A stretch of 64,000 nt of DNA from Clostridia bacterium (GCA_017503325.1 JAFVTI010000038.1:114428-178427); one strand, 5' to 3'. Shown: positions 4,679 through 51,300, counted from the first letter of the stretch. Notes: generated by a model not told the origin, from the letters alone. Numbers and translations: made by a program.

Positions 4679-6142
4679 TTAGTAATCGTAGCCGTAGGCC
4701 TCGTAGATCTTCTTGAGCTCCTTGAGCGTCAGATTCTCATTCTTGGAAATGTCTCTGGTGATAGAGGCACTCTTTTCGTTAAGCGAGGTCTGAGCGATGG
4801 ATGCGCAAGGCAGATTGCCGAAGTGCGTATAGCCAAAGTCGAATACCTTGTGACGGATGATCACGTCAACCATCTCTGCGGACTCGGGGTCACGTGCATT
4901 CTTGGACTTAGCAACCTTATCGTACAGGGTATCGGTCACCATGTAGTAAGAGGTGGAAGCCAGGACCTCCAGCAAGTAGCCGGCATCCTCCAAAGCCTCA
5001 TCATCAAGGCTTACGGGTATGCATGCAGTGGGAGCAGCACCGTTTACGAATCCCAGGTACTCAGCCTGCTTCTCATCGTACTTAGGCTGAGGCAGGATAC
5101 CGAATTCGGTCTCCATCTCGCGCAGGCTCGTGCCATCGATCAAGGAACCTGCAAAGAACAGTGCTCTGCCCGACTTGAATACGTTGATGGGCTCAGCATA
5201 CATGGAGTTGTTTGCCAGGTATTCCTTTACGGTTACGTGGAAGGACTGCTGGGTCACAACCAGCTCGTAGATCTTGTCGTAGATCGTCTGCAGTCTGTCG
5301 GCGTTGGGCTGATAGACGGGCAGGTGGTCCTCGTCAAAGGTGAACATGGTGCAGCCGGAGCCAAACCAGAAGTTATAGTCACTTGCCATAGACCAACCTG
5401 TCAAACCGTAGAAGTCGTCGGTATAGTTTATCTTACCGTCACCGTTAAGGTCATTGGTCTGATCCTTGGTGATTTCCAGCATGTCGTCAAGTGTCCAGGT
5501 GCCGTTTCTTGCATCTTCATAAGGATAATCAAGGCTCTGCTCGTCGAACAGGGTCTTGTTGAACATCATAGCAGCGGTGAGCATCATAGAGGTAGGCAGC
5601 AGGTCGCCGCAGACCACAAACATGTTGTCACCGAACATAAAGCCGTTCTTGCAATCCTGGTCCCACCAGGGGTTGTCAAAGTTGACGTACTCCAGATCAG
5701 TCAGGTTATACAGACAGTTGCCCATACCCAGGCTGGTAGCAGCATCAACCATGTGCTGGTAAATGATGTGATACTCACCACTACCCGAGCTGACGTCATT
5801 CTTGACCTTCTGGCTCAGAGCGAGGTAGTCAAGCTCAACAATAGGATTGAGCTTTACACCGTAGTGGTTTTGAATCTTGTCGTTTCTTCTGTAAATGGCA
5901 TCCTCCAGGGGGTCGGATTTGTCCGGCTCATCAGAACCCATATCAGTCTCTGTCTGTACCAGAAGATTGAACTCCTTGCCATTCAGATCCTCATTAGGCT
6001 CCAGATCAGCACTGATCCACTGGGACTCTTCTTCGGAGGAGTCACCGGAAGACTTTTCATTTTCGTCAGTGTCAGCACAACCAACGAACATGCTGATCAG
6101 CATAAGGCCGCACAAAAGCATAGCTAAGAGCTTTTTGTACAT
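4679..6142 (-). CDS. SBP-like surface lipoprotein, tandem paralog 1
   Basis: MYKKLLAMLLCGLMLISMFVGCADT lipobox. Ends ..YEAYGYDY. Shares long identical blocks with paralogs 2 and 3 (NPWWDQDCKNGFMFGDNMF, FGILPQPKYDEKQ, VLASTSYYMV.DTLYDKVAKSKNARD). Confidence 0.6.
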   Translation of the reverse strand: MYKKLLAMLLCGLMLISMFVGCADTDENEKSSGDSSEEESQWISADLEPNEDLNGKEFNLLVQTETDMGSDEPDKSDPLEDAIYRRNDKIQNHYGVKLNPIVELDYLALSQKVKNDVSSGSGEYHIIYQHMVDAATSLGMGNCLYNLTDLEYVNFDNPWWDQDCKNGFMFGDNMFVVCGDLLPTSMMLTAAMMFNKTLFDEQSLDYPYEDARNGTWTLDDMLEITKDQTNDLNGDGKINYTDDFYGLTGWSMASDYNFWFGSGCTMFTFDEDHLPVYQPNADRLQTIYDKIYELVVTQQSFHVTVKEYLANNSMYAEPINVFKSGRALFFAGSLIDGTSLREMETEFGILPQPKYDEKQAEYLGFVNGAAPTACIPVSLDDEALEDAGYLLEVLASTSYYMVTDTLYDKVAKSKNARDPESAEMVDVIIRHKVFDFGYTHFGNLPCASIAQTSLNEKSASITRDISKNENLTLKELKKIYEAYGYDY

Positions 6143-6190
6143 GCTTGTTCCTTCTTTCGTATTTATTTTTTTGCATAGGTATACGCATTC

Positions 6191-6219
6191 ATTCTATCAC
6201 AAGAGTAAATTGTTGTCAA
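6191..6219 (-). promoter_or_regulatory. sigma-A-type promoter of paralog 1
   Basis: Minus strand reads TTGACA (6219-6214), 17 nt, TAGAAT (6196-6191), with TGTGA just upstream of the -10. Confidence 0.6.
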
Positions 6220-6286
6220 GGAAATAGTCATTGATTGTCAAGAAAAGAGTCATTGATTGTCAAGAAAAGAGTCAATAATTGACAAG
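6213..6286. repeat. three tandem 22-bp direct repeats (TTGTCAAGAAAAGAGTCATTGA) ending in the palindrome GTCAAT-A-ATTGAC
   Basis: Units at 6213-6234, 6235-6256 and 6257-6278. Palindrome at 6271-6283. Each unit carries TTGACA on the minus strand. Confidence 0.8.
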
Positions 6287-6328
6287 AATAATTTCGGCCA
6301 CATTTTGTGCAATTTGACACAAACAAAA

Positions 6329-6353
6329 AGAAACCCGCACGTGGCGGGTCTCT
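6329..6353 (-). terminator. terminator after paralog 2
   Basis: CCCGC-ACGTG-GCGGG core with extended imperfect stem. The minus strand continues TTCTTTTTGTTTG. Confidence 0.65.
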
Positions 6354-6374
6354 TGGTGGGTATTCGAATATCAA

Positions 6375-7844
6375 TTAGTAATCGTAGCCGTAAGCCTCGT
6401 AGACCGTCTTGAGTGCCTTGAGGGTCTGATTTTCGCTCTTGGAAATGTTTCTGGTGATAGAGGCACTGCCGCTGCCGAGCGAAGTCTGAACAATGGTTGC
6501 ACAAGGCAGACCCTGAACGTGGAAGTGGGTGTAACCAAAGTCGAATACCTTGTGACGAATGATCACGTCAACCATCTCGGCGGACTCCTCGTCACGTGCG
6601 TTCTTGGACTTAGCAACCTTATCGTACAGGGTATCGGTTACCATGTAGTAAGAGGTGGAAGCCAGAACCTCCAGCATGTAGCCGGCATCAGCAAGTGCTT
6701 CCGCGCCAAGGCTCTTGGGCACGCATGCAGTGGAAGCCGATCCGTTTACAAAGCTCAGGTACTCTTCCTGCTTCTCGTCGTACTTGGGCTGAGGCAGGAT
6801 ACCGAATTCGTCCGCCATCTCGCGGAAGCCGGTACCATCGGACAGGGAGCCTGCAAAGAACAGCGCTCTGCCTGCCTTGAATACGTTAGCAGGCTCAGCG
6901 TAAATAGCACTGTTAGCCTGGAAATCCTGCATGGTTACGTGGAAGGCCTGCTGAGTAATGATCAGCTCATAGATCTTATCGTAAATGGTCTGCAGTCTGT
7001 CAGTATTGGGCTGATAAACGGGCAGGTGATCCTCGTCAAAGGCGAACATGGTTGCACCGGAGCCAAACCAGAAGTTGTAGTCGCAAGCCAGAGTCCAGCC
7101 TGCAAGGCCGTAGAAGTCGTTGGAGTAGTCGACCTTACCGTCACCGTTGAGGTCACGGGTCTGGTCCTTAGTGATCTCCAGCATGTCGTCAATGGTCCAG
7201 GTGCCTTCTCTTGCATCCTCATAAGGATAATCAATGCTCTGCTCGTCGAACAGGGTCTTGTTGAACATCACGGAGGCGGTGATCATCATGGACGAAGGCA
7301 GCAGGTCGCCGCAGATCACGAACATGTTGTCACCAAACATAAAGCCGTTCTTGCAGTCCTGGTCCCACCAGGGGTTGTCAAAGTTGACGTAATCCAGCTC
7401 GGTCAGATTGTACAAATTACCACCGGTACCGAGGTTGGTTGCTGCGTCTACCATATGCTGGTAAACGATGTGGTATTCACCACTGCCCGAGGTAACGTCG
7501 TTCTTGACCTTCTGGCTAAGCGCACTGTAGTCAATTTCAACCAAAGAGTTGAGTTTGACACCGTAATAGTTCTGGATCTTGTCGTTTCTTCTGTAAACGG
7601 CGTCCTCCAGGGGGTCGGATTTGTCCGGCTCCTCTGCCCCCATATCGGTCTCACTCTGTGTAAGGATGTTGATATCCTTACCCTTCAGACCCGGGTTGGG
7701 CTCCAGATCAGCGCTGATCCACTGGGACTCTTCTTCGGAGGAGTCACCGGAAGACTCTTCATTTTCGTCAGTGTCAGCACAACCAACGAACATGCTGATC
7801 AGCATAAGGCCGCACAAAAGCATAGCCAAGAGCTTTTTGTACAT
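6375..7844 (-). CDS. SBP-like surface lipoprotein, tandem paralog 2
   Basis: Same signal peptide/lipobox and the same C-terminal YEAYGYDY as paralog 1. Full-length ORF of 489 aa. Confidence 0.6.
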   Translation of the reverse strand: MYKKLLAMLLCGLMLISMFVGCADTDENEESSGDSSEEESQWISADLEPNPGLKGKDINILTQSETDMGAEEPDKSDPLEDAVYRRNDKIQNYYGVKLNSLVEIDYSALSQKVKNDVTSGSGEYHIVYQHMVDAATNLGTGGNLYNLTELDYVNFDNPWWDQDCKNGFMFGDNMFVICGDLLPSSMMITASVMFNKTLFDEQSIDYPYEDAREGTWTIDDMLEITKDQTRDLNGDGKVDYSNDFYGLAGWTLACDYNFWFGSGATMFAFDEDHLPVYQPNTDRLQTIYDKIYELIITQQAFHVTMQDFQANSAIYAEPANVFKAGRALFFAGSLSDGTGFREMADEFGILPQPKYDEKQEEYLSFVNGSASTACVPKSLGAEALADAGYMLEVLASTSYYMVTDTLYDKVAKSKNARDEESAEMVDVIIRHKVFDFGYTHFHVQGLPCATIVQTSLGSGSASITRNISKSENQTLKALKTVYEAYGYDY

Positions 7845-7892
7845 GCTTGTTTCCTTCTTTCGTATTTATTTTTTGCATAGGTATACGCATTC

Positions 7893-7921
7893 ATTTTATC
7901 ACAAGAGTAAATTGTTGTCAA
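7893..7921 (-). promoter_or_regulatory. sigma-A-type promoter of paralog 2
   Basis: Minus strand reads TTGACA (7921-7916), 17 nt, TAAAAT (7898-7893). Confidence 0.6.
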
Positions 7922-7988
7922 GGAAGAAGTCATTGATTGTCAAGAAAAGAGTCATTGATTGTCAAGAAAAGAGTCAATAATTGACAAG
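7915..7988. repeat. second copy of the 3 x 22-bp repeat plus palindrome block
   Basis: Units at 7915-7936, 7937-7958 and 7959-7980, then TTGACAAG. The whole 232-bp spacer 7845-8076 is near-identical to 6143-6374. Confidence 0.8.
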
Positions 7989-8030
7989 AATAATTTCGGC
8001 CACATTTTGTGCAATTTGACACAAACAAAA

Positions 8031-8055
8031 AGAAACCCGCACGTGGCGGGTTTCT
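8031..8055 (-). terminator. terminator after paralog 3
   Basis: Perfect 10-bp stem AGAAACCCGC / GCGGGTTTCT with loop ACGTG, and a T-run on the minus strand. Confidence 0.7.
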
Positions 8056-8076
8056 TGGTGGGTATTCGAATATCAA

Positions 8077-9546
8077 TTAGTAATCGTAGCCGTATGCCTC
8101 GTAGATCTTTTTCAGAGCCTTAGTGGTCTGCTTTTCGCTCTTGGTAATGTCTCTGGTGATAGAGGCACTCTTGCTGTTGAGTGCAGTCTGAACGATGGAT
8201 GCGCAAGGCAGGCCATCGTTGTGGAAGTGGGTATAGCCAAAGTCGAATACTCTGTGACGGATGATGACGTCAACCATCTCAGCGGACTCCTCGTCACGTG
8301 CGTTCTTGGACTTAGCAACCTTATCATACAGCGTATCGGATACCATGTAGTAAGAGGTGGAAGCCAGAACCTCCAGCATGTAGCCGGCGTCTGCCAGAGC
8401 ATCCTCGGAAAGGCTCTTGGGTACGCATGCGGTGGAAGCTGCACCGTTGACGAAGCTCAGGTACTCTTCCTGCTTCTCATCGTACTTGGGCTGAGGCAGG
8501 ATACCGAATTCGTTCTCCATCTCGCGCAGACCCGTACCTGCGGACAGGTAGCCTGCATAGAACAGTGCTCTGCCTGCCTTGAATACGTTGGAGGGCTCCT
8601 CATACATCGAGTTGTTGGACAGGTATTCCTGAACGGTTACGTGGAAGGACTGCTGGGTCACGATCAGCTCGTAGATCTTATCGTAGACGGTCTGCAGTCT
8701 GTCGGTGTTGGGCTGATATACGGGCAGGTGATCCTCGTCAAAGGTGAACATGGTGCAGCCTGCGCCGAACCAGAAGTTGTAGTCACAGTCCAGCGACCAG
8801 CCTACAAGGCCGTAGAAGTCGTCGGTGTAAAGTACCTTACCGTCACCGTTGAGGTCACGGGTCTGGTCCTTGGTCATCAGCAGCATGTCGTCGATGGTCC
8901 AGGTGCCGTCTCTTGCATCCTGATAAGGATACTCAAGGCTCTGCTCGTCAAACAGGTTCTTGTTGAACATAACGGCAGCGGTGATCATCATAGAGGAAGG
9001 CAGCAGGTCGCCGCAGACCACGAACATGTTGTCACCGAACATGAAGCCGTTCTTGCAGTCCTGGTCCCACCAGGGGTTGTCAAAGTTGACATACTCCAGG
9101 TCGGTCAGGTTATACAGGCAGTTACCCATACCCAGGTTGGTAGCAGCGTTTACCATGTGCTGGTAAACGATGTGGTATTCACCACTACCGGAGCTTACGT
9201 CGTTCTTGACCTTGTCGCCAAGTGCAACGTAGTCAAGCTCAACCAGCGGATTAAGAGTCACGCCGTAGAAGTTCTGGATCTTGTCGTTTCTTCTGTAAAC
9301 GGCATCCTCCAGGGGGTCGGATTTGTCCGGCTCCTCTGCGCCCATATCGGTCTCGGAGTTTGCAAGAATATTGATCTCCTTGCCCTTCAGACCCTCATTG
9401 GGCTCCAGATCGGCACTGACCCAGTTGGTCTCTTCCTCGGTGGAGGCATCGGTAGAGGTTTCCTCTTCACCGGTGTCAGCACAGCCGACGAATACGCTGA
9501 TCAGCATCAGGCCGCACAAAAGCATAGCTAAAAGCTTCTTGTACAT
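8077..9546 (-). CDS. SBP-like surface lipoprotein, tandem paralog 3
   Basis: MYKKLLAMLLCGLMLISVFVGCADT. 489 aa. Ends YEAYGYDY. Confidence 0.6.
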   Translation of the reverse strand: MYKKLLAMLLCGLMLISVFVGCADTGEEETSTDASTEEETNWVSADLEPNEGLKGKEINILANSETDMGAEEPDKSDPLEDAVYRRNDKIQNFYGVTLNPLVELDYVALGDKVKNDVSSGSGEYHIVYQHMVNAATNLGMGNCLYNLTDLEYVNFDNPWWDQDCKNGFMFGDNMFVVCGDLLPSSMMITAAVMFNKNLFDEQSLEYPYQDARDGTWTIDDMLLMTKDQTRDLNGDGKVLYTDDFYGLVGWSLDCDYNFWFGAGCTMFTFDEDHLPVYQPNTDRLQTVYDKIYELIVTQQSFHVTVQEYLSNNSMYEEPSNVFKAGRALFYAGYLSAGTGLREMENEFGILPQPKYDEKQEEYLSFVNGAASTACVPKSLSEDALADAGYMLEVLASTSYYMVSDTLYDKVAKSKNARDEESAEMVDVIIRHRVFDFGYTHFHNDGLPCASIVQTALNSKSASITRDITKSEKQTTKALKKIYEAYGYDY

Positions 9547-9696
9547 ACTTGTTTCCTTCTTTCATAATATTTTGCATAGGTATACACCTACATTCTACCA
9601 CAAGAGTCTGTTCTTGTCAAGAAAAATTTTCAACCCCGATTTTATATAGTCGAAGCCTGCACCGCGGTGCAGGCTTCTCTTCTTTGTTTCGTTTTA

Positions 9697-11172
9697 TCAG
9701 CCGTCGTAGCCGTACGCCTCCAGGATCTTATCCAGTTCCTTTCGGGTATTCTTTTGCGAATTGGTCAGATCTCTGACAATAGAGGGACGCTTATCCTGCA
9801 GCGCAACCATAATGATATTGGAGCACGGCAGATTCTTGTGTGAGAAATGCAGATAGCCGAAATCAAAGACCTTGTGACGGATGATGATGTCCACCATTTC
9901 GGCAGACTCCTCGTCGCGCGCGTTCTTGGACTTGGCGATCACGTCGTACAGCGTATCCGTTACCATATAATAAGACGAGGACGCCAGCGCCTCCATCATA
10001 AAGCCGGTGGTCTCCAGCTTTTGCTCGGACAGGCTGACGGGGACGATCGCAACGCTTGCAGCCGCGTTGACAAAGCCGAGATAATCCTTTTGCGTTTCGT
10101 CATACTTGGGCTGCGGCAGGATGCCGTAGTCGTCGATCATATCACGCAGATTGGTGGTGATGGACAGATTGGTGGGAAACAGCAGCGCACGTCCGTCACG
10201 GAACACCTCAATGGTGCCAAAATACAGATTGTTGTCCTTGAGATACTCGTTATAGGTCAGGTGGTAGGTATCGGGAGACAGCAGCAGCGCGGCGGTCTTC
10301 TCATAGATCGACTGCAGCTTATCGGTGTCGGGGGCAAAGGTGGGAATGTGCTGATCATCGTAGGTGAACATGGTCGCGCCCGCACCGTAAAAGAAGTTAT
10401 AGTCGCAGTCCAATGCCCAAGAGGTAATGCCGAAGAAATCGTCGGTGTACAAAATCTTGCCGTCACCGTTGAGGTCCTTGGCCTGGTCCTTGATCATGCC
10501 CTGCATATCGTCCATGGTCCACGTGCCTGCTCTTGCATCCTCGTAAGGATATTCCCAGCCGCGCTCATCAAACAGATTCTTGTTGAACAGCACGGATCCC
10601 GGGATCAGCTGCGTTGTGGGGATCAGGTCGCCGCAGGCCATCATCATATGATCGCCGATGGCAAGACCGTTCTTGCAGTCCTGGTCCCACCAGGTCTGAT
10701 CAAAGTCCACAAATTCCAGCTCGGACAGATCGTACAAATAGCCGCCCAGGGCGAGATTGTACGCAGCGTTGCCCATATGCTGATATACGAGATTGAATTC
10801 CCCCGTTCCGGCAGCCGTATCGTTCTTGATCGCATCCGCGATCACGTCAAGGCTTGGCTCGTCGGAGTTGTTGAATACGATCCCGTATTCTGTCTGCAGT
10901 CTGTCGTTTCTGCGGTATACTGCATCCTCAAGCGGATCGGACGAATTTTCCTCCGGGCCAATATCATATCGGCTTTGCGCCAAAATGACGAATTCCTGAC
11001 CCGCAAGCGGCGTTTCAAGCTTGGAAGGGTCCAGCGTCTCGGCAACCCAAAGCTCCTTTTCTTCAGTCGCCTCCGAGGACTGCTCCTCATTTTCCCCTTG
11101 CGCGCAGCCCGCAAGCAAGCCCACAAGCATCAAAGCACTCAAAAGCAAACATAAAATTCTGTCTTTCATCAT
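9697..11172 (-). CDS. SBP-like surface lipoprotein, tandem paralog 4 (more divergent)
   Basis: ATG at 11172 or 11169 after GTGAGG. MMKDRILCLLLSALMLVGLLAGC lipobox. Conserved blocks WWDQDCKNG, YGILPQPKYDE, KSKNARDEESAEMVDIIIRHKVFDFGY. Ends EAYGYDG. Confidence 0.6.
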   Translation of the reverse strand: MMKDRILCLLLSALMLVGLLAGCAQGENEEQSSEATEEKELWVAETLDPSKLETPLAGQEFVILAQSRYDIGPEENSSDPLEDAVYRRNDRLQTEYGIVFNNSDEPSLDVIADAIKNDTAAGTGEFNLVYQHMGNAAYNLALGGYLYDLSELEFVDFDQTWWDQDCKNGLAIGDHMMMACGDLIPTTQLIPGSVLFNKNLFDERGWEYPYEDARAGTWTMDDMQGMIKDQAKDLNGDGKILYTDDFFGITSWALDCDYNFFYGAGATMFTYDDQHIPTFAPDTDKLQSIYEKTAALLLSPDTYHLTYNEYLKDNNLYFGTIEVFRDGRALLFPTNLSITTNLRDMIDDYGILPQPKYDETQKDYLGFVNAAASVAIVPVSLSEQKLETTGFMMEALASSSYYMVTDTLYDVIAKSKNARDEESAEMVDIIIRHKVFDFGYLHFSHKNLPCSNIIMVALQDKRPSIVRDLTNSQKNTRKELDKILEAYGYDG

Positions 11173-11286
11173 AAACCTCACTGTTTTCGGTATTTATACG
11201 AATATCATATCACATACTTTGCCGTCTGTCAAGAGAGCCGGGTCACACATGACCCGGCTCTCTTTATATTTGATTTGTTCGGTTGA

Positions 11287-12768
11287 TCAATCGTAGCCGT
11301 AAGCTCTCAGAATCTTCTTGAGCTCGTTTCTGGTTCTTCTCTCGGAGTTGGTGATCTCCTTGACGATCGAGGTTCTGTTTGCCTGCAGCGCGGTCTGGGC
11401 GACGTTGAAGCAGGGGAAATCCTGACCGGAGAAATGCGAATAACCAAAGTCAAACACCTTGTGACGGATGATAATATCCACCATTTGTGCAGATTCCTCG
11501 TCACGAGCGTTCTTGGACTTGGCCACAACGTCGTAAAGGGTATCCGTGGTCATGTGATAGGACGAGGACGCCAGCGCTTCCATCATAAAGCCTGCGACCT
11601 CCAGATTAGCATCGCTCAAGCTGCCCGGCACGCACGCCATGCTTGCGCTGCCGTTGACAAAGCCGAGGTAATCCTCCTGCTTTTCATCATACTTGGGGTT
11701 GGGCAGGATGCCGTAGTCATCCACCATATCACGCAAGGAAGTAGTCGTAGACAGGTAGGTCGGGAAGAACAGCGCTCTGCCGTCTCTGAACACATCGATG
11801 GTCTTGTTGTACATGCCCGGATCTGTTTCGTACTGTGCCCAGATCACGTGGAAGGAATTCTGCGTGATCAGCAGCTCGTAGATCTTTTCGTAAATTGCCT
11901 GCAATCTGTCGGTGTCGGGATCAAATACGGGCAGGTGGTCCTCGTCGTAGGAGAACATGGTCGCACCCGAGCCAAAGAACAGATTGAAGTCTGCGTCGGC
12001 TGCCCATGCGGTCACACCGAAGAAATCGTCGTCGTGGAAGATTCTGCCGTCACCGTTGAGGTCCTTGGTCTGGTCCTTGGTCAGCTCCAGCATATCGTCC
12101 ATGGTCCAGTTCCCTTCCCGTGCGTCCTCGTAAGGGTAATCCCAGCCGTTGCGGTCGAACAGGTTCTTGTTAAACAGGACCGTTGCAGTGATCAGCATCG
12201 TCGAGGGCAGCAGGTCGCCGCACACCATCATCATGCTGTCGCCAATGACAAAGCCCTTCTTGCAATCCTGGTCCCACCACTCGTTATCAAAATTGACGTA
12301 TTCCAGATCGGTCAGGTTATACAGATAATTGCCGGGAGCCAGGCTGCGCGCTGCCTCGATCATGTGCTGATACACGATGTGGAATTCACCCGTGCCCGCG
12401 GTCACGTCGTTTTTGACGTTGGTGGAAATAACCGCGAAATCGGGCTGGTACTGATTGTTGAATTCAATGCCCAGCTCTGCCTTGAGCTTGTCGTCTCTTC
12501 TGTAAACGGCATCCTCAAGCGGGTCGGACGAATTTTCCTCGGGGCTGATATCGTACTTGTTGTACGCCAGAATGTTGATCTCCTGTCCCTGCAGGCTGAC
12601 GCTCAGCTTCTCGGGATCCAGCTCAGGGTTCATCCAATACGTTTCCTCTTCGGTAACGCCCTGGGAGCCCTCCGGGGTCTCTCCCTGATCGGGCTTATCC
12701 ACGCAGCCTGCAAGCACGGCAAGCAGCATAAGCACACCGAGAAGGATGCATAAGAGTCTGATCTTCAT
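11287..12768 (-). CDS. SBP-like surface lipoprotein, tandem paralog 5
   Basis: ATG at 12768, 8 nt after AGAGAGG. MKIRLLCILLGVLMLLAVLAGC lipobox. Same conserved blocks as paralog 4. The ORF-track start at 12774 is a TTG. Confidence 0.6.
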   Translation of the reverse strand: MKIRLLCILLGVLMLLAVLAGCVDKPDQGETPEGSQGVTEEETYWMNPELDPEKLSVSLQGQEINILAYNKYDISPEENSSDPLEDAVYRRDDKLKAELGIEFNNQYQPDFAVISTNVKNDVTAGTGEFHIVYQHMIEAARSLAPGNYLYNLTDLEYVNFDNEWWDQDCKKGFVIGDSMMMVCGDLLPSTMLITATVLFNKNLFDRNGWDYPYEDAREGNWTMDDMLELTKDQTKDLNGDGRIFHDDDFFGVTAWAADADFNLFFGSGATMFSYDEDHLPVFDPDTDRLQAIYEKIYELLITQNSFHVIWAQYETDPGMYNKTIDVFRDGRALFFPTYLSTTTSLRDMVDDYGILPNPKYDEKQEDYLGFVNGSASMACVPGSLSDANLEVAGFMMEALASSSYHMTTDTLYDVVAKSKNARDEESAQMVDIIIRHKVFDFGYSHFSGQDFPCFNVAQTALQANRTSIVKEITNSERRTRNELKKILRAYGYD

Positions 12769-12802
12769 TTGCAAAACCTCTCTTTAATATAGAATTACCT
12801 GT

Positions 12803-12843: not shown

Positions 12844-14337
12844 TCATTCTGCTTTTTTCTGTGCTTTGCGTCGGATCAGGCGTATAATCAGAAGGATCAG
12901 AACGATCACAAGCACGATGGCCACCACCGCGCCCAGAATGACCAACAGTACGGGCAGGACGAAGAACAAAAACAGAAACCAAATAAATGCAAAGCCGCTT
13001 GTCTCGATTGGATTTTTCCACTTGCACAGCGTCACGTAGTAAACACCACTTTTGGGCGTGGAGCGCTCGGACAGCGTATATCCCTTCCGATCCTTTTTGT
13101 AGTTATCAACAGAGAGGCTGTTTCTCTCGTCGGTCATGATCTTGAGCTTTGTATCGATTCTGACCGTGTACTTCCCTACCGATTTCCAATCGGAGCTGCC
13201 GTGGAAATGATAGGTGAAGGTGGCCGCCTTGGGGCTGTAATACTCCATCACGTCGGGATAAACCGGCAAGGTGATGGAATTGACCGTGCTCTCGCCCGCA
13301 CCCAGCGTGACGTCGTAGGTCAGAAATCCTTGCAGATTGGACGTAACATCCAGCTCCATCCGTGTCTGATAACCAATCAGACAGGTGTCTTTCAGCTGAC
13401 TGCATATCAACATACTAAAGACGGCATTGTACCAATCCTTTTCAGGAATGCCCGCATCCGGGTCGTACTCGCTCATGGCAAGCTCGCCAAAGGTGGTGGT
13501 GCTCTGTTCTACCAGCTGCACGTCGCAGCCTCCAACCCGTTTGCCGTCATCGGTCAGCTTCCAATTGACTTCTCCGATATCCTCACCCAGCACGTACAAA
13601 GTCACAAGCGAACCCTTTGAAACTCGCACACGCATTTGGGGAATTGCATTTTCCTCGTAAACGTCGACATGTTTATCGGAAAAGATCAACGTGCGGGATG
13701 CATCATAATCAAAGTCGGCGACCATGTCGCAATAAAAGCTTTCGTTATTTCCCGACGTAGAATAAGGCTGATAGGTATACACCGTAACGGGCAGATCGGG
13801 CGACAGGAGCGAGTGTGCAGCATAGGAATCCTGCAGATTCTCTGCCCAATCACGAGGATCATAACCGCTGCGGCCTGTTTGATAGTTTTGCGAATTAGGC
13901 GTCCATGCGTAGCGAAGCTCGGGCGTGACTCGCTCACCGCCCACCTCCACGGTATAGAATGAAGCAAGCTGCGCTCTTGTACAAAGCCTTTGCGCATAGG
14001 AGGGCGCGTTGGCTGCGGCAAACATCATTTTCACCGTTTGCTCGGTGTCGGTGGGGTTGGAAAAGGTATAGTCCAGGCGCAGCGTTGAGGAATACTTTTC
14101 CAAAAGCTCCGATTGGTCAAATTCATCTGCCGGCAGCTCGGGAATATCGTAGGTCAGTGCCAGGCTCTCCATGCTCAGCTGACTCTTGCGCCCCTTTGGG
14201 AAAACGCCAAAGACGTCTATACCGGGATCGGGCTCTATGGGCGACATGGCAGACGCGGGTAGGATGGCTAAGGCGCACAGCAAAATTGCCATCGCGCCTG
14301 CAGCCAGGTGCTTGAAAAATTTTTGATATCGATTCAT
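12844..14337 (-). CDS. exported protein of unknown family with long C-terminal hydrophobic anchor (paralog P1)
   Basis: Signal peptide ..AILLCALAILPASAMSP. C-terminus FAFIWFLFLFFVLPVLLVILGAVVAIVLVIVLILLIIRLIRRKAQKKAE. Shares TTTFGELAM..YDP.AGI...DW.NA with P2 and P3. Confidence 0.7.
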   Translation of the reverse strand: MNRYQKFFKHLAAGAMAILLCALAILPASAMSPIEPDPGIDVFGVFPKGRKSQLSMESLALTYDIPELPADEFDQSELLEKYSSTLRLDYTFSNPTDTEQTVKMMFAAANAPSYAQRLCTRAQLASFYTVEVGGERVTPELRYAWTPNSQNYQTGRSGYDPRDWAENLQDSYAAHSLLSPDLPVTVYTYQPYSTSGNNESFYCDMVADFDYDASRTLIFSDKHVDVYEENAIPQMRVRVSKGSLVTLYVLGEDIGEVNWKLTDDGKRVGGCDVQLVEQSTTTFGELAMSEYDPDAGIPEKDWYNAVFSMLICSQLKDTCLIGYQTRMELDVTSNLQGFLTYDVTLGAGESTVNSITLPVYPDVMEYYSPKAATFTYHFHGSSDWKSVGKYTVRIDTKLKIMTDERNSLSVDNYKKDRKGYTLSERSTPKSGVYYVTLCKWKNPIETSGFAFIWFLFLFFVLPVLLVILGAVVAIVLVIVLILLIIRLIRRKAQKKAE

Positions 14338-14346
14338 AAATTGTCC

Positions 14347-14637
14347 TCCGTTCGTTTAGCCGAACGGGAGCCGAACCAAGTTGGTTTTGACGGGCAGATT
14401 TTCCCGATCCCTGCATCTTTTCTCCCCGGACATATTGCCTATATGCCCTGCGAGAAAAGCTTTTGGGCTCAAAAAAATCTGCTGCGTCAAAACTGCTCGC
14501 ACCCGACGGCGAATGCATTTTTGATAGATTTTGGCGCGATTTTGCGAAGCAAGATACCAATCTTGCGAGTGAAAGCACGCCGGAAGATGCGAAAATGCAT
14601 CGTCGTCGGGCAATTCGGTTCGACTCCCGTTCGGCTA
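14347..14637 (-). promoter_or_regulatory. structured intercistronic RNA element with three mutually complementary segments, one covering the P1 Shine-Dalgarno
   Basis: Segment 14617-14637 (GGTTCGACTCCCGTTCGGCTA) is the inverse complement of 14357-14377, with 20 of 21 positions matching. The latter also pairs locally with 14347-14355, next to GGAGG. Confidence 0.45.
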
Positions 14638-14675
14638 TCCTTCATCAATCAGGACAGGATTCTTCCGTTTTGATT

Positions 14676-16160
14676 TCACTCTTGCTGCGTTTTTTTGCGT
14701 TTTTTGCGCTTGATGATCGCACGGACGATCAAAATCACAACCGCAACGGGCAGCGCAACGGCAAGCACCGGGACCAGCACGACGATCAGGATCAGCACGA
14801 GCATCAGTACCGAATAGGCATTGAAAACGCGCTTGGGATTTTCCGTGGAGCTGAGCGTAAACACCAGATCCCGCTCGGGCAAGCCGTCAATGTGCAGCTC
14901 GTAGCCCGCCTCGGTCTTGATCCACTCCCCCGGAGCTATGCTAAACTCTCCCTTTCGTTCCTTGACCATGACGTACGGCGTGTTGACGTAAATATCCAAC
15001 GTGCCGAACTCCTTCCAGAGCGAGGCGGGGGAGGTCAGATATTCATAGATGTAGATCGGAACGTCGTATCCTCCGTCAATATTCGGATAAAGCGGGGCTT
15101 TTACGGTATTGGTCAAACGCTCACCCGGGGCGATCTTGATTTGATACTCGTACCATTGCAAAAGATGCCCGGAAATATCCCAGTCGTTCACGACACCGCC
15201 ATACAGACCGATCGGCTTACCCGACTGCTCCAGCTGCGCCACGATGGCATTGAACCAATCGTGCGCCGCGATCCCCGCCGCGGGATCGTAGCATTGCATG
15301 GCAAGCTCGCCAAAGGTGGTGCTTGTCTTGTCCACCACGCTCATGCTGCCCTCGATCCGTGTCTCCAGGGAGCCGTTTTCATAAAACTCCCATTTCAACT
15401 CCCCGGCGTCCTCGCCAAACACGTACACCGTGATCTCGGGATCGGACAGGTGCACGGAAGCAAAACCCGCATTTCCGTTCTCGTCAGAGCTGTATCCGCT
15501 CATATGCTCCAGCATAAAGCGCGTCTTTTCCAATGCTCCGTCAAAATACGTAGCCGCACGTGCCGAGCGGTAGGTCTCACGGTCCACGCCGCTGACGCTG
15601 TAGGTGTAGATATATACGGGCAGATCAAAGGTCAGAAAGCTGTCGGTACGGTAATCGCTGTACAGCTTTGCCATTTCCTCGGCAGGATCAAAATCATAGA
15701 GCGATCCGCCCCAATAGCTGTGCCGAATCACGGTATCCACGTCTGCTCCGTTGACCTGTGCTCCGTATTTTGAAGCATTATCGGGGGTGACGTATTCTCC
15801 CAGCTCGGAATTGTAAAATTCCGCATAATAGGGGTTGATACCAAACGGAAACAGCAGATTTGCCGTGACCGTCATGTCACTTGGGTTATAAAAGGTATAC
15901 TCTGCCGTCACGCTTGCATCGTACGCAAGGTAGTCCTTTGCGCTGCCAAAATGATTGGCGGGAAATTCCGCAATATCAAAGGTCAGCGTTTCGTGCTCGA
16001 CCACCAACGGGCATTCCCCATCGGTGACCAATACGCCCGAAGCGTTGACGCCCTCCCAATACGACTCCGCAGAATTGGCGGACGCAGGCAGGACGGCAAG
16101 CAGGCACAGAAGTGCGGCCAACAGCGCCGCAAGGGCGACTTTTGTTTTCTTACGCATCAT
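14676..16160 (-). CDS. exported protein of unknown family with C-terminal hydrophobic anchor (paralog P2)
   Basis: MMRKKTKVALAALLAALLCLLAVLPASANS signal. C-terminus ..LMLVLILIVVLVPVLAVALPVAVVILIVRAIIKRKKRKKTQQE. Its start overlaps the P3 stop (16150-16160). Confidence 0.7.
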   Translation of the reverse strand: MMRKKTKVALAALLAALLCLLAVLPASANSAESYWEGVNASGVLVTDGECPLVVEHETLTFDIAEFPANHFGSAKDYLAYDASVTAEYTFYNPSDMTVTANLLFPFGINPYYAEFYNSELGEYVTPDNASKYGAQVNGADVDTVIRHSYWGGSLYDFDPAEEMAKLYSDYRTDSFLTFDLPVYIYTYSVSGVDRETYRSARAATYFDGALEKTRFMLEHMSGYSSDENGNAGFASVHLSDPEITVYVFGEDAGELKWEFYENGSLETRIEGSMSVVDKTSTTFGELAMQCYDPAAGIAAHDWFNAIVAQLEQSGKPIGLYGGVVNDWDISGHLLQWYEYQIKIAPGERLTNTVKAPLYPNIDGGYDVPIYIYEYLTSPASLWKEFGTLDIYVNTPYVMVKERKGEFSIAPGEWIKTEAGYELHIDGLPERDLVFTLSSTENPKRVFNAYSVLMLVLILIVVLVPVLAVALPVAVVILIVRAIIKRKKRKKTQQE

Positions 16161-17730
16161 CGTTTTTCTCCTTTTCCTCCCCTTCTGTTTCTGTGATTTT
16201 CTCGGGCTGCGGCGGGATTTGCTCTGCTGCCCTTCTCTTTTTCCTTACTTTTCTGACGATCAGAAGGATGATCAGCGCAAGAATTGCCAAAGGCACCGCC
16301 GCGGGAAGGATGACACAAACAAACAGTACGATCAGAATCACAAGCAAATACAAAAGCAATGCAATAATGGAACTGTCAAACGGTTTTTGCTTTTCGCAGA
16401 CAGAGATCACCAGATAGTCAAAATCCGTATCTCCCTCCCAGCAATAGCCGTCCTCGGTTTGCTCATATTCCTTTTGGCTCGGAGTGGGGGCATCCACGTC
16501 ACACAAATACAGATCGGTCAGAATGCGCACGCTTGTCGGTCCGCACGTGCTCCAGGCTTCCGCTGCCGTCATGGCAAAGGCGTAGGTATATACCGACGGA
16601 CTGTAATTACCGTGCTCAAACGGATGCAGAGGTGCCGTGACTTTCACCGTAGCACTCTGCCCCGGTGCCAGCGTAAGATCAAAGCTGTTCCAGGCTTGCA
16701 GGTTGCTCTCATTAAGCTCCACCGTATCTCCCATATACGTCACGGCAGTCCCCTCGGTCCGATTGCTCGTAATATATGCAATAACTGCATTATAGTAGTC
16801 GATTTCGGATACACTTCCCTGCGCGTCATAGCCTTTCATAATCAGCTCGTAAAAGGACATTGTGGTTTTTGAAACCAACGTCACGCGCGCGTCCAATCGG
16901 TCTCCGTCCGCATCCACCGTCCAAGCCACCTCTCCTACGTCTGCGCCGATCGAATAAACGGTGGGGTTTTCACGATTAAACCCGGGAAAAGAAATTCTTA
17001 CCTTGTTCTCTCCCGCATTGGCAGGATACCACGCATTGGAAGGATACCACGCATCGGTGACAAGCACCGCGCACCTTGACGGATCGGCAACCAAAGAGCC
17101 CGACACTTCAAACATATCATCCTTTTGCGAGGTATCGTATTCGGTGCGATAGGCATATACGTAAACGGTCGCATCCGGTGCAAGAATGGAGTGCGGAACG
17201 TAAGTATCCGAATAATAAGCAAGAAATGCTGAGGCAGGGTCACGTTTTCCAAGTTGCGTGGGTGCGTGATAGTAGCTGTTATCCGGCGTATAGGAATGGC
17301 GCTGTTGCGCCTGTACCTGTTCCCCATCGATCTCCACGGTGTACTTATTTGCATCCGTGCCGTACGGCAGATCGTATGCATACCAGGGATCAGTGCCGAT
17401 GGGCGTCAACATACGCTCGGTGACGGTCTGATCGGTGGGATTGTGTATCGTATATGTGGCTATCGTATTTGCACTGTACGCAAGAAACTCTTCTTCGGTC
17501 TTGTACCGACTCTTGGGCGGCAGCTCACAGGCGTTCAATTCAATCTCGGTACGTTCCAGCGCAAGCGCGGTGGCCCCGTCCGCAACGAACAAACCACCCG
17601 CCACGCTGCCGGCATATGGCCCCGCGGGGTCAATGGCTGCAAAAGAAGGCATGACGGCAAGGACGCAAAGCAAAATTGCCGTCGCGCCTGCCGTCATGCT
17701 CTTGAGTATGGCTCTAAAATTTTTCTTCAT
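16150..17730 (-). CDS. exported protein of unknown family with C-terminal hydrophobic anchor and acidic tail (paralog P3)
   Basis: ATG at 17730 after GGAGGAAACGTCT. MKKNFRAILKSMTAGATAILLCVLAVMPSFAA signal. C-terminus ..LLLYLLVILIVLFVCVILPAAVPLAILALIILLIVRKVRKKRR plus a Glu-rich tail. Confidence 0.7.
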   Translation of the reverse strand: MKKNFRAILKSMTAGATAILLCVLAVMPSFAAIDPAGPYAGSVAGGLFVADGATALALERTEIELNACELPPKSRYKTEEEFLAYSANTIATYTIHNPTDQTVTERMLTPIGTDPWYAYDLPYGTDANKYTVEIDGEQVQAQQRHSYTPDNSYYHAPTQLGKRDPASAFLAYYSDTYVPHSILAPDATVYVYAYRTEYDTSQKDDMFEVSGSLVADPSRCAVLVTDAWYPSNAWYPANAGENKVRISFPGFNRENPTVYSIGADVGEVAWTVDADGDRLDARVTLVSKTTMSFYELIMKGYDAQGSVSEIDYYNAVIAYITSNRTEGTAVTYMGDTVELNESNLQAWNSFDLTLAPGQSATVKVTAPLHPFEHGNYSPSVYTYAFAMTAAEAWSTCGPTSVRILTDLYLCDVDAPTPSQKEYEQTEDGYCWEGDTDFDYLVISVCEKQKPFDSSIIALLLYLLVILIVLFVCVILPAAVPLAILALIILLIVRKVRKKRRAAEQIPPQPEKITETEGEEKEKNDDA

Positions 17731-17850
17731 AGACGTTTCCTCCAAATCATAATGCGGTTGGGGGCTTCTATCTATACAGTCGGAAAAAATGTGTTTTCGT
17801 TCCGTTTTTCGCCAAAAAACGTTTGTTAATATTTTGTGAATGACTCGGAA

Positions 17851-24950: not shown

Positions 24951-25969
24951 TGTTCCGTCTCCTTTACTGATATTGTGGGAAAGGGGCAATCCGCCGCCTC
25001 AAGGCGCACGGCGTTGCCGAATTCCTCTCGGAGTCGCAAAAGATTCTGCCTGTGCTGTCCGATGGCCATCGACAGCTCGCGGGCAGGAATATATATTGTC
25101 TGCACAGGCATTTGTGCCTTATGCAGCATATCTCTGAGTTTTCTGTAATACAGCTCGCTTCGCACAAGCTCGCCCATCGCGGGATGATTCGCCCCCGCAA
25201 CGGCACAGGCGGGATCGGACAGATTGTCCGACGCGCAAAGCCCGATGCGGATCACGGGCACGCCGTGCGCCAAAAATACCTCCAGCACCACTGCGCTGCG
25301 GCTGACAGCCTCGGATTGCGTCAAAGGCACGTATGCACCGCTCTGCATCAAGGCGCAAAGCTTGGTATTTGCAAAAACCACCGTGGGGTAAATGCGCGCA
25401 GCGCGCACACCAAGCTCACAAAGATGCTTTGCAGTCTGCACCTCGCTTTGCACGGTACTGCCCGGCAGGCCGATCATCATCTGGCCTACTACGTCGTACC
25501 CCGCATCCGAAAGCAAGCGGCAGGCCTGCTCTGCACTCTTTGCGTCATGTCCGCGTCCGGATGCGACAAGCACGGCATCATCCATGCTCTGCACGCCAAG
25601 CTCAACCGTGCGCACGCTGTAGTGCGACAAGACCCGGATGATCTCTTCCGATATGTAGTCGGGTCTTGTGGACATGCGAATGCCCTGCACACGCGCCTTG
25701 CCGGCAAGCGGCTTTTGCACGTACCGCTCGGCCACGTCCAAAAGGTAGATCATCAGCTCGCGGTCGATCCCTGTAAACGAACCGCCGAAATAGGCAATCT
25801 CGGCCGTATCGTCCTCGCATGTCGTGGCAAGGGCGGCCATGATCTGCGCGTCCACGCTTTCGGGATCAAAGCTCTGCGTGCCCGAAATGCTGCGCTGATT
25901 GCAAAATACGCAGGTATGCGGACAGCCCAGGTGCGGAATGAAAATGGGGATATTCAAATGTCGGCTCAT
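24941..25969 (-). CDS. radical SAM protein (ELP3-like family, commonly found between rnc and smc in Clostridia)
   Basis: FIPHLGCPHTCVFCNQ CxxxCxxC motif. Translationally coupled at both ends. Confidence 0.75.
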   Translation of the reverse strand: MSRHLNIPIFIPHLGCPHTCVFCNQRSISGTQSFDPESVDAQIMAALATTCEDDTAEIAYFGGSFTGIDRELMIYLLDVAERYVQKPLAGKARVQGIRMSTRPDYISEEIIRVLSHYSVRTVELGVQSMDDAVLVASGRGHDAKSAEQACRLLSDAGYDVVGQMMIGLPGSTVQSEVQTAKHLCELGVRAARIYPTVVFANTKLCALMQSGAYVPLTQSEAVSRSAVVLEVFLAHGVPVIRIGLCASDNLSDPACAVAGANHPAMGELVRSELYYRKLRDMLHKAQMPVQTIYIPARELSMAIGQHRQNLLRLREEFGNAVRLEAADCPFPTISVKETEQCT

Positions 25970-26697
25970 GGCTGTACGCCAAACAGCTCCAACGCCTGAC
26001 GCGCAGCACTTTGCTCAGCGCGACGCTTGGACTGTCCTTGGCCGCGACCGATCACGTTGGAATTGAGTCGCGCCTCCACCGTAAAGGTCTTTTGGTGATC
26101 GGGTCCGCTCTCGCCAACCGTGACGTATTCAAGGAAATCGCCCTCGGTCTGCTGCACGAATTGCTGCAAAAGCGTTTTGTAATCACGGCTGCCCGTATGG
26201 CTTGCATTTGCTATTTCCCTTTGTATAAAAGGCAAAAGCAGCTCTGTCACACGCGCAATGCCCTGATTTCCCGCGTCAAGATAGATCGCAGCCAGAACGG
26301 CTTCAAACGCATCGGCCAGGATCGACTTTCGCTCTCTGCCGCGATTCTTTTCCTCGCCCACGCCCAAAAGCAGATAATCACCAAGACGGATCTCGTCGGC
26401 AAACGAGGAAAGCGCACGCTCGCAGACCAGCTCGGCACGCATGCGCGTCAGATCACCCTCCGCAAGATCGGAATAGGCCGAATACAGATATCGGCTGACC
26501 ACCAAGGAAAGCACCGAATCGCCCAAAAACTCCAGGCGTTCGTTGCAAAGCAGGTGGTGATGCTTGTCCCCTTGCTCGTTGGAATATGAGGAGTGCGTCA
26601 GCGCCTTTTGCAGATATGAGGGATTTGTAAAACGGTATCCCAGCGACTCTTCAAGCTGTGTATAGGGTCTGGGATAGCAGTTCACAGGGTTGTTCAT
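25966..26697 (-). CDS. rnc: ribonuclease III
   Basis: NERLEFLGDSVL signature plus a C-terminal dsRBD. Confidence 0.9.
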   Translation of the reverse strand: MNNPVNCYPRPYTQLEESLGYRFTNPSYLQKALTHSSYSNEQGDKHHHLLCNERLEFLGDSVLSLVVSRYLYSAYSDLAEGDLTRMRAELVCERALSSFADEIRLGDYLLLGVGEEKNRGRERKSILADAFEAVLAAIYLDAGNQGIARVTELLLPFIQREIANASHTGSRDYKTLLQQFVQQTEGDFLEYVTVGESGPDHQKTFTVEARLNSNVIGRGQGQSKRRAEQSAARQALELFGVQP

Positions 26698-47894: not shown

Positions 47895-48308
47895 TTTTTC
47901 ATACCTCTTTTTTGAATGATGCTTCGCGAAACTCGCCATGAAGCTTGTTACATTTGTTACGTACATTATACGAACACGCAGAATTTTTGTCAAGGCAAAG
48001 TCAAGTTTGTTCACAATTCCATGCAGATAATGTTACAATTGTCACTATTCGCGATACACTTCCGGTTCTTTTATCACAGTATACATTGCAAGCATTTTCT
48101 CTGCCGCAGGTGCAGATATTTGCCACGCAAAACCGTGTGAGTTTGGCTCTCTTCGGCTATACGAGCAAAAGTTTTGCTTTTCTTTTTAGTTTTGTCAAGC
48201 TTTTGTTGAAACATGAAAGAAAGAAGTTTCCATACTTCTCTCTTATATCTTGCAATTGCAAAATTTGTATGCTATAATGAATTATATTCCATATTACAGG
48301 AGGTTTTT

Positions 48309-51300
48309 ATGCGACCGTTAAAAATTGCAGCTTTCATCCTTTGCGGCTGTATGCTGCTTGGCTTTGCCGCTTGTACTCCCGAAACGCCCCCCGAGCCTTC
48401 CGACAGCTCCGCGGAGCAAACTACAACACCTCCCGAACAAACAGAACCCGAAACTCCCCCCGATCCCCCCAAGGATGCACTCGAAGTGAAAAAGGAGGAA
48501 TTGGAAGCCATGAAAAAGACGATCGGTGCAACGACCGATACCGTCCTTTATGTCAAGGACTTCGGTGCCGTGGGTGACGGCAAGACCGACGACGGTGCCG
48601 CCATCTTTGCAGCAGTCAAGGCTGCCGCAGAGCAGCATGCAACGCTCAAATTTGAGCAAGAAAAATCCTACTACATAGCATCCGTGCCCGGTAGCCGTCT
48701 GACCCCCTTTGCACTTGACAACGCGCATGATATGACCATCGACGGCTGCAATTCGACCATTCTGATCGCGCCCGACATGCGTTATATCCGCTTCTTTGAC
48801 TGCGGAAACATCAAAATGACCAATCTGCATTTTGACTACGCCGTACCGGTTTATCTGGTTGGTAAGGTCATCGCCGTAAACGGCAACGACGTTGTTTACA
48901 GCGTGGATCAGGATCCTTACGCAGATCATTATGATTTCGCACGCATCAACGGCTTTTCGATCATGTATAACGAGGGCACGCAGCAGCGTCCTCACCAGTT
49001 TATCAGCAAATCGGTCAAGACCGGGGATAAGGAAATCACGTTTACGTATGCCAACCCGCATCACTATAAGCAAGGTGATCTGGTATTTCTTCCCAATCCC
49101 GGTGTAGGCCACGCAGCAGACCAGGTCATCCACGTAGCAGGATCGGATCAGCCCATGCTGTTTGAAAACATCGGTGTCCACGCAGCATCCTCGTTTGTTT
49201 GGGCAGTGATGCATAACTCCGCCCCCGTATTTTTTGAGAACGTAGATCTCGTTCCCGCACAGAGCAACGACAAAGAGATCAAGATGGTTTCCTGGCGCGA
49301 CGGATACCATTGCAAGGACAACTCCGCCTCCCTGCACTGGAACAACTGCGAGGCTGACGTGCTGTTTGACGACGTATTCAATATTGCAGCCACGCTCGGC
49401 AACGTGATCGAGGTGGACAACAACTCCACCTTTACCATCAAGAATCTGGAGAATCCTGCCGCTGCATTCGCATGCGAGCCCGGCGACACGATCGATATTT
49501 ATCATCTTCAGGATGGCACCTACAAGGGTAGTGCGCGCGTGCGCGCAGTCGTCCGCAATGCAGACGGCTCCTGCACAATCCACCTCTATTACGGACAAAC
49601 CATTGACCAGGTCACTACGGGCTGCGTAGTGGCAAACCGCGATACGGGTGCTCCCGGCTCTACCATTACCAACTGCCATTTCCAGGGCACGTTCCGCTTC
49701 TTGCGCAACCTGTACGTGGAAAACACCGTCTTTGATATGCTGGTGACCTGGATGATGGTGGAGGGCTCTGTGGAAGGTCCTCTGCCCGGCAATGTGGACT
49801 TTGTGAATTGTACCTTCAATGGCGGTGAGGTTCAGATCGACGCCTTTAACCGCAATACTGCAAAGCGTATGAAGAAGATCGGTGAGCACATCGTGGACAT
49901 CGGCTTCTGGAGCTGTACCTTTAACAGTGACAGCCGCGTATATACCAAAACCGGCGCAGATTATACCATTTCCGAATCTTATACCACAGAGGATCTCTTC
50001 ACGATCAAGAATGCAGCCGCCAACGCTGATCCGCAAAGCATCACCCCCGCCAAGAACGATCTGTTGCTCGGCGTTACCTACGACTGGACGCTCTTTACCA
50101 TGCCCATGACGGGCGAGAGCGCAGCCATTACGCCGCTTGACAGCCTGGATTCCTCTCTGGTTGCTCTGCTCAACCAAGAAAACGTAGGTGATAACGTACT
50201 GCAGCTGACTGCAAAGCAGGGTGAGAAGCTGTATTTGGACGGTCTGAGTGCTTCCGCATTCCCTGCCCTGCATGAAAAAGGCGGCAGTTATATCGTCAAG
50301 CTGACCTATTACACCGCGTCTCCCGTCAAAGCAAGCCTTGTCATCGGAGATCAGGTGGTTTCCGAGGACCTCTTCAACATTACGGGCGAGTTGACCACGG
50401 TAACCTTCAGATATGAAGCCAACGGCACGGGTAAGATTTCTTATATTGAGTACGCAGGCGACGGCACGGCATACCTTGGCGAGCTGACTCTGGCATCGTT
50501 CGTCAATGCCAATCCCTCGATCAGCCAGCTGGAGGCAGGACACACCTTCGCCTGGGATAACAAGGTACAGATCAAGGGTGGCGAGGTACTCAAGGTTTCC
50601 GATATTCAGGACGCGGCTGTCAAGCAAGCGATCCAGGGGGCTCCCGACCGCTTTGGTGAGACCGTCATGCACCTAAGTCAAGACTTTGGCCAGTTTACGG
50701 GGATTACCAAGAAGTCTTACTTCACATCCGGTACGACCTACCATTTAAGCATTGATGCCTATATCGCCTCCCCCGTCTCGGCGGGCACCACCATGTATCT
50801 GCTTGCCATGGACGATACCGAAGGCAATCGCGTGCTCAAGGAAGGCATTTTTGCAGGCGAGGGCATGTACCACTTTGAGATGGACTGGCAGGTTGGCACC
50901 ACCGGCGAATACGAGCTCAGATTCTTTATCAACAACACCCCTGCCAAGTATGCGGACATTTACGTGGGTAACTTCTCCATAACCAAGATGCCCGGCATGA
51001 ATCCCAACTCCACCATCGTTCCCGAAAGCATGGCCGCTCCCACGGCAGATCAGCTCAAGGCAGGCTTTACCTACGATTTTGCACAGGGTATCTTCTTTGA
51101 GACTACCAAGAATACCTACGTGGATTCCTCCTGCCTCAACGCCTATACCAAAGAGAAGCTGGCCGAAGCCGGATTTGGCGAGTATGCTTACTACTTCAAC
51201 GACAACTTTGACGGCGTTGCTCTGGCAAATCCCCTGCAGGGTGGCAAAAAGCATACCATCACCATGCGCGTCTTTGACTGCAAGGGCAATCTGGACGACA

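Follow-up and report, generated by a model that had tools for sequence, protein, structure and literature searches.

What fills the 338 nt of non-coding DNA that separate two genes of an otherwise tightly packed surface-protein operon, and does it act on the translation of the gene that follows it? The operon lies on the minus strand of a 64,000-nt stretch of Clostridia DNA, hereafter the window, and three paralogous genes bear on the question:

12844-14337, minus strand: P1, with a signal peptide and a C-terminal transmembrane anchor and no Pfam family; hypervariable between lineages
14676-16160, minus strand: P2, a P1 paralogue with the same layout of signal peptide and C-terminal anchor
16150-17745, minus strand: P3, a further paralogue, overlapping P2 by 11 nt

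Both the P3-P2 overlap and the P2-P1 gap (14338-14675) agree with a preliminary description of this DNA. The three proteins each carry a signal peptide, a C-terminal hydrophobic anchor and a basic tail, Pfam assigns none of them to a family, and an exact match to the P1 protein comes from an NCBI MAG that bears the label Clostridia bacterium. P1 is followed on its own strand by five paralogous ORFs in tandem, each of ~490 aa (4679-12774, minus strand); two of the five match solute-binding-protein families, and the one that was translated has a lipoprotein-like N-terminus. Two of the spacers among these tandem ORFs are exactly 232 nt long (6143-6374 and 7845-8076). The neighbourhood is that of a housekeeping chromosome, with ftsY, smc, rnc (25966-26697), trmFO and topA.

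The preliminary description drew attention to three mutually complementary segments in the minus-strand RNA and proposed an anti-anti-SD/anti-SD/SD translational switch, in which segment B pairs either with segment A, leaving the Shine-Dalgarno (SD) sequence of P1 free, or with segment C, hiding it; a MITE-like insertion was offered as the alternative. Segments A (14617-14637) and B (14357-14377) lie where they had been placed and are complementary at 20 of 21 positions. Their repeat extends further, to 27-nt arms (14357-14383 and 14611-14637) that are complementary at 24 of 27 positions with 227 nt between them. Within the 64-kb window the 21-mer occurs at these two places only, and shuffled sequences give an expectation of 0. 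Segment C and the SD are also present, but one base away from where they had been put (CGAACGGAGG spans 14354-14345 and GGAGG spans 14349-14345), so that the SD stands 7 nt, and not 8, from the ATG at 14337-14335:

14345-14354, minus strand: segment C, CGAACGGAGG, which includes the P1 SD GGAGG (14345-14349); it belongs to the flank, outside the element described below, and reads CGAATCGGAGG in sites where that element is absent

The local hairpins that had been noticed in the interior are real. The spacer is predicted to fold as a three-way junction, with the A:B pairing as its closing stem and two hairpins of ~110 nt as its arms. The 371-nt stretch has an MFE of -156 kcal/mol on the mRNA (minus) strand, compared to -105 +/- 5.5 kcal/mol for shuffled sequences (z = -9.4), and the opposite strand of the spacer region folds to a similar extreme (z = -9.9). 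The spacer contains no predicted sigma-70-type promoter and no predicted intrinsic terminator, and it matches no Rfam family at gathering thresholds or at E <= 10.

The 21-mer turned out to be dispersed. With GGTTCGRCTCCCGTTCGGCTA as the query, a scan of GTDB at one genome per species returned 63 loci in 10 species-level MAGs of the Eubacteriales/Oscillospiraceae, with up to ~18 loci per MAG and unrelated flanks, which bears out the MITE-like insertion that had been held in reserve. Many of these loci are <150 nt from contig ends, and paired matches are spaced 259-260 nt apart, the same spacing as in the window. One metagenome project supplied 13 additional copies in a second scan, and blastn with the 281-nt element recovered 16 further full-length copies at 90-95% identity, together with ~30 copies cut by contig ends. 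When copies were aligned with 45-nt flanks, similarity stopped abruptly at TAGCC...GGCTA and the flanking sequences were unrelated; TA flanks all 17 full-length copies, the window's included. The family also has internal-deletion derivatives (161 nt at locus L027 and ~60 nt at L034) and a solo element end (L070); such forms, like the 47-bp ones below, are typical of MITE families.

Two other repeat forms were observed in these MAGs. Six near-perfect palindromes of 47 bp consist of two TIRs abutted, in unrelated flanks (L020:1207-1253, L041:7874-7920, L049:2446-2492, L052:18-64, L062:786-832 and L069:4101-4147); they represent minimal derivatives or else the smallest mobile unit. A distinct GC-rich palindromic repeat, GGGGACGGCGCC..GACGTCCC, adjoins several MITE copies (L009:5150-5380, L037, L042:4620-4667 and L064:5968-6010) and is absent from the window.

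Metagenome assemblies record the repeat in their own way. Contigs with an identical P1 from four Logan runs all begin at the inner edge of arm B, and a Logan contig with P2 ends 2 nt beyond the inner edge of arm A, which places the unitig breaks 27-29 nt into the element from both sides. De Bruijn graphs break ~k-1 bases inside repeats, and these breaks are as expected for a repeat because its 30-mers are common to other copies. Multi-k assemblies cross the spacer intact, with an identical spacer sequence.

The copy in the window comprises the following parts, in the order TIR_A, hairpin 1, hairpin 2, TIR_B on the mRNA strand:

14357-14637, minus strand: the full-length MITE copy, of what we call family 1; the site is empty in orthologous operons
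14611-14637, minus strand: TIR_A, containing segment A, with the direct heptamers GCCGAAC-N4-GTCGAAC; the duplicated target TA on the upstream side is its outermost dinucleotide (14636-14637)
14502-14610, minus strand: hairpin 1, an imperfect palindrome with the apical stem-loop GCAAGAT-TGGT-ATCTTGC
14384-14493, minus strand: hairpin 2, an imperfect palindrome with arms of ~42 nt
14357-14383, minus strand: TIR_B, containing segment B; the duplicated target TA on the downstream side is its outermost dinucleotide (14357-14358)

The element measures 281 bp with the TA at each end and 277 bp without, while the family consensus is 280 nt. The TIRs are 27 nt long including the TA (25 bp without it), and their outer 13 positions are near-invariant across the 17 copies. 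In the family, a directly repeated heptamer (GCCGAAC-N4-G[T/C]CGAAC) recurs in each TIR with a spacing of about one helical turn; from their sequence, the paired heptamers look like a putative bipartite binding site. We found no coding capacity, as 1-nt indels that differ among copies break any frame and no Pfam-bearing ORF lies in the element; nor does either strand of the family consensus show a promoter, even when the threshold is relaxed to 8/12. The apex of hairpin 1 (GCAAGAT/TTGTATC) is a recurrent breakpoint (L009/L037, L074/L093, L082, L084-L086 and L092), and at L067 a sister element is nested there.

The TIRs (14357-14377 and 14617-14637) also contain a T-loop-like GGTTCGAnTCC, and the 12 nt after it match in length a T-stem 3' strand and an acceptor 3' strand taken together. 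An origin from a tRNA or an att site was considered and rejected: ARAGORN detects no tRNA gene anywhere in the window, the T-arm lacks its 5' half, and the likeness was judged a coincidence.

Orthologous operons, reached via P1 homologues, capture the site before and after insertion. Two pairs of loci have a P2-P1 spacer of only 60 nt and are empty (L072/L073, with P1 69% identical, and L094/L095, with P1 73% identical). The empty site reads ...GATGAAGGC-TA-AACGAATCGGAGGACAATTTATG (in shorter form ...GAAGGC-TA-AACGAATCGGAGG), and the filled site in the window reads ...GATGAAGGA-TA-(GCCGAACGG...CCGTTCGGC)-TA-AACGAACGGAGGACAATTTATG (in shorter form ...GATGAAGGA-TA-(GCC...GGC)-TA-AACGAACGGAGG). 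The single TA at the four empty loci, compared to TA-element-TA in the window, identifies the TA as a target-site duplication. The element landed 7 nt upstream of the P1 SD, inside a pre-existing P2-P1 spacer of ~57-60 nt. P2 of the empty-site lineages is 94-95% identical to the window's in DNA, so that close relatives are polymorphic for the insertion.

A third allele occupies the same TA at L074 and L093, which come from independent samples and assemblies. It is a rearranged, truncated copy without TIR_B: it retains one TIR, a hairpin 2 in reverse orientation and, in forward orientation, the 5' arm of hairpin 1, and breaks off at the hairpin-1 apex directly against the TA. This arrangement was found nowhere else among 40 junctions examined. 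At L097, the P1 orthologue overlaps an upstream P gene, possibly P2, by 8 nt.

In all likelihood, then, the 338-nt gap is explained by a non-autonomous, TA-inserting MITE, probably IS630/Tc1-like, that is presumably co-transcribed within the operon. Segments A and B pair because they are the two transposon ends. Segment C lies outside the element and is present in the empty sites, and is consequently older than the insertion. Because no promoter or terminator is predicted inside it, the element would be transcribed as part of the P3-P2-P1 mRNA, where a very stable three-way junction would form with the SD left outside. The effect of the insertion on P1 is probably neutral or modest; at most, the 27-bp stem and the long hairpins may offer an RNase III-type processing site, as in the Correia elements of Neisseria.

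For its mobility the element would depend on a DDE transposase acting in trans, which would bind the GCCGAAC heptamers at the ends and insert the element at TA; this enzyme would most likely be of the IS630/Tc1-mariner type, the usual source of TA duplications, with RUP and IS630-Spn1 as the precedent (PMC2229807). Since no autonomous parent was found, the assignment to this superfamily draws solely on the TA duplication. The search for a parent found no TIR-like pairs 600-3000 bp apart in 590 kb of loci, no match in a metagenome scan for a TIR followed by a non-MITE interior, no match in plasmid and phage collections, and no transposase adjoining the solo end at L070. MAGs usually lose IS copies, and for that reason the absence of the parent is weak evidence.

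A sister family, family 2, is ~70-75% similar, has the ends TAGCCGAAGAGAGCCGAAC, and occurs in four places: nested in L067, in L020, in L096 and in the window itself, where a remnant of it survives:

48085-48159, plus strand: right-end remnant of family 2, 75 nt, with TIR TAGCCGAAGAGAGCCGAAC; 90.7% identical to L096:2247-2523, intergenic, and 53 nt upstream of the ORF at 48213-51512

At L096 (GCA_017452945.1, JAFTLD010000081.1), a full family 2 copy (2245-2525) lies within the P1 orthologue and splits it into ORFs of 159 and 405 aa. The split gene reads TTCTATA before the copy and TATACC after it, where the intact window gene has TTCTATACC; the duplication is TATA, or the copy has an extra TA, and this is the sole misfit to a strict 2-bp TA rule. 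Some IS5-family subgroups produce variable duplications of 2-4 bp, and an IS5-family origin is an alternative whose variable duplication would fit the TATA at L096.

The operon genes themselves also vary. Between the window and three lineages (L072, L074 and L094), P2 is 94-96% identical in DNA and the adjacent P1 only ~78%; P1 is hypervariable or has been replaced by recombination, with the change-over at the MITE-bearing spacer. In one metagenome assembly of the same strain (L001:2213-3662), P2 has a 35-bp deletion whose frameshift yields ORFs of 334 and 146 aa.

A MITE origin is compatible with a later use, and the strongest rival to a mere insertion is co-option, either of the family or of this copy, as an RNA module for 5' UTRs and intercistronic regions. 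It might, for example, be an RNase III processing or stabilizing structure through which P1 and the binding-protein genes downstream become uncoupled from P3-P2. One line of evidence is where the copies sit. We took non-redundant element ends with at least 350 nt of flank and asked whether an outward-reading ORF of at least 100 codons, with its SD and start codon, occurs within 45 nt; the TIR_A end was the internal control, and this criterion replaced a longest-ORF pass that was noisy from long antisense ORFs. The TIR_B end lies just upstream of an SD and start codon in 15/45 cases, compared to 3/41 for the TIR_A end (Fisher p = 0.003; ends from loci L015-L092), with gene calls in the flanks that are crude ORF calls, and one of the three TIR_A cases is a spurious antisense ORF of P2. 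This bias toward ribosome-binding sites counts against a purely neutral selfish element, because such an element does not predict it. It could reflect selection on orientation within 5' UTRs, or an asymmetric target preference toward DNA that is rich in purines and SD-like; A is the first flank base at 24/46 B ends and at 12/42 A ends. Both flanks prefer TA-N-S-C reading outward, and this symmetry points, at the level of sequence, to a symmetric target.

The structure itself is another line of evidence for co-option. Its fold is extreme (z of about -9.5), pairing is retained in 98.8% of pair cells of the family alignment (slid controls are 35-48% paired), and compensatory double changes occur at 7 pairs, compared to 2.5 +/- 1.1 in column shuffles, none of which reached that number in 500. 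Such conservation could come from RNA-level selection, or equally from DNA-level palindrome maintenance and templated, quasi-palindrome correction. The strand that folds better, by 14.9 +/- 6.5 kcal/mol in 17/17 copies, is the B-to-A strand, which is antisense to the operon here; this asymmetry amounts to a single observation, since the copies inherit it from one master or ancestor. The presence of rnc in the window and the precedents of Correia and ERIC elements (PMC2229807, PMC10969869) speak for co-option, while the close relatives that lack the element at this site speak against it. On balance, we consider co-option of the family or of this copy unlikely. The more specific proposal that the family is a portable, orientation-specific RNA module directly 5' of ribosome-binding sites, whose three-way junction in the A-to-B transcript is processed, by RNase III for instance, or shields the downstream mRNA, we hold to be quite unlikely.

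A different use of the same repeats would make the locus an inverton, with the 27-bp inverted repeats as recombinase sites and the ~227-bp interior flipping to turn P1 on or off. The position directly upstream of a surface-protein gene, the reversal of hairpin 2 at the same site in L074/L093 and the breaking of Logan contigs at the repeat would all fit. However, the reversed allele is truncated and lacks TIR_B, with hairpin 2 alone reversed, and so is not a clean flip, and the contig breaks fit 30-mers shared with other copies. Dozens of unrelated loci carry the same element, neither orientation has a predicted promoter, and no recombinase was found among the 20 large ORFs scanned in the minus-strand operon and its neighbours (2063-30350). 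An inverton is very improbable.

The dedicated switch over the P1 SD fares worse still. All three complementarities exist, and the window flank even contains CGAACGG, a perfect 7-mer complement to B, where relatives have CGAATCGG. The B:C hairpin is likewise real, with seven perfect pairs, a bulge and two more pairs. Its predicted free energy is -12.9 kcal/mol, however, compared to -45.9 kcal/mol for A:B. The two alternatives are not comparable in stability, as the difference of 33 kcal/mol indicates; B:C enters the MFE structure only when A is barred from pairing, which costs 26 kcal/mol. Transcription reaches segment A ~240 nt ahead of B, and both internal hairpins are local folds. Moreover, A and B are transposon ends found at >60 unrelated sites, C predates the insertion, Rfam has no match, and across orthologous operons the element is missing from the 60-nt spacers, B is missing from L074/L093, and the genes overlap at L097. 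The predicted unpaired probabilities of the SD positions are 0.61, 0.61, 0.30, 0.04 and 0.06 with the element and 0.82, 0.62, 0.54, 0.16 and 0.18 in the reconstructed empty spacer, which we judge to be similar. Nothing in these models suggests a regulated alternative fold over the SD, and we give a dedicated translational switch scarcely any credence. The preliminary description had itself named dispersed ends in unrelated flanks, and loss of the spacer or of the complementarity from orthologous operons, as grounds against the switch, and both were observed.

Least credible of all is a structured non-coding RNA gene on the plus strand, antisense to the operon, for which the consistently more stable fold of that strand would speak, and against which stand the lack of a predicted promoter or terminator on either strand, the lack of an Rfam match and the inheritance of the fold asymmetry from one master sequence.

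The MITE reading places the element among well-known company. Long stem-loop transcripts, TIRs and TA termini are typical of bacterial MITEs (PMC2229807, PMC10969869, PMC2649163). The Correia/NEMIS/CREE elements of Neisseria are alike in being non-coding, in having TIRs of ~24-26 bp and TA termini or duplication, and in occurring as many intergenic copies near gene starts that are co-transcribed with their neighbours, as would be the case here (PMC2229807, PMC2649163, PMC10969869). The Correia TIR stem in transcripts is an RNase III substrate (PMC2229807, PMC2649163, PMC10969869), whereas here we see only a substrate-like 27-bp stem (-45.9 kcal/mol) and an rnc gene. The window element is also about twice as long (281 bp compared to 107-155 bp), forms a three-way junction and not a single hairpin, and has no promoter-like sequence at its ends; given their differing ends and phyla, the two are not expected to be related in sequence. 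The likeness to Correia/NEMIS is thus an analogy, not membership.

RUP and other IS630-mobilised MITEs share a Firmicutes host, TIRs, TA insertion, deletion or nested derivatives and insertion into repeats (PMC2229807). RUP, at 107 bp, is thought to be mobilised at TA by IS630-Spn1 (PMC2229807), a cognate with matching ends, in contrast to the missing parent here. The ERIC/IRU elements of enterobacteria are co-transcribed imperfect palindromes as well, and ERIC alters the stability of flanking mRNA in an orientation-dependent manner (PMC2229807); ERIC, however, is 127 bp long with very short TIRs, is enterobacterial, and acts via RNase E. Finally, the anti-anti-SD/anti-SD/SD switches of riboswitch expression platforms and thermosensors likewise have three mutually complementary segments beside an SD, but the present arrangement is not conserved with the gene, its alternatives are unbalanced, it has no aptamer or Rfam match, and two of its three segments are transposon ends. 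At 281 bp, the element exceeds the 100-200 bp of classic bacterial MITEs. It belongs to no named family; together with its sister family it adds a new example of a well-known type of element, from uncultured Clostridia that have been little studied.

The element accounts for the anomalous 338-nt gap in an otherwise tightly packed operon, and it carries a caution for annotation, in that transposon ends can be misread as riboswitch-like helices. A MITE family and its sister family have apparently been active recently in uncultured gut or rumen Clostridia; their elements are polymorphic among lineages that are ~95% identical, and they break short-read assemblies. One surface-protein operon has been struck repeatedly, by a full copy in the window, a rearranged copy at L074/L093 and a sister copy that splits P1 at L096. 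These repeated insertions in a hypervariable surface-protein operon, and the RBS-proximal orientation bias, are the only points that are possibly worth more work. If the family does serve as an RNA module, expression of P1, itself hypervariable, and of the five genes for solute-binding lipoproteins would be uncoupled from that of P3-P2. Close relatives in which the element is present, absent or rearranged would then differ in a polymorphism that slowly switches surface proteins on and off or tunes them. Should selection underlie the placement bias, this family would serve as a useful model of the rewiring of operon expression by MITEs in Firmicutes.
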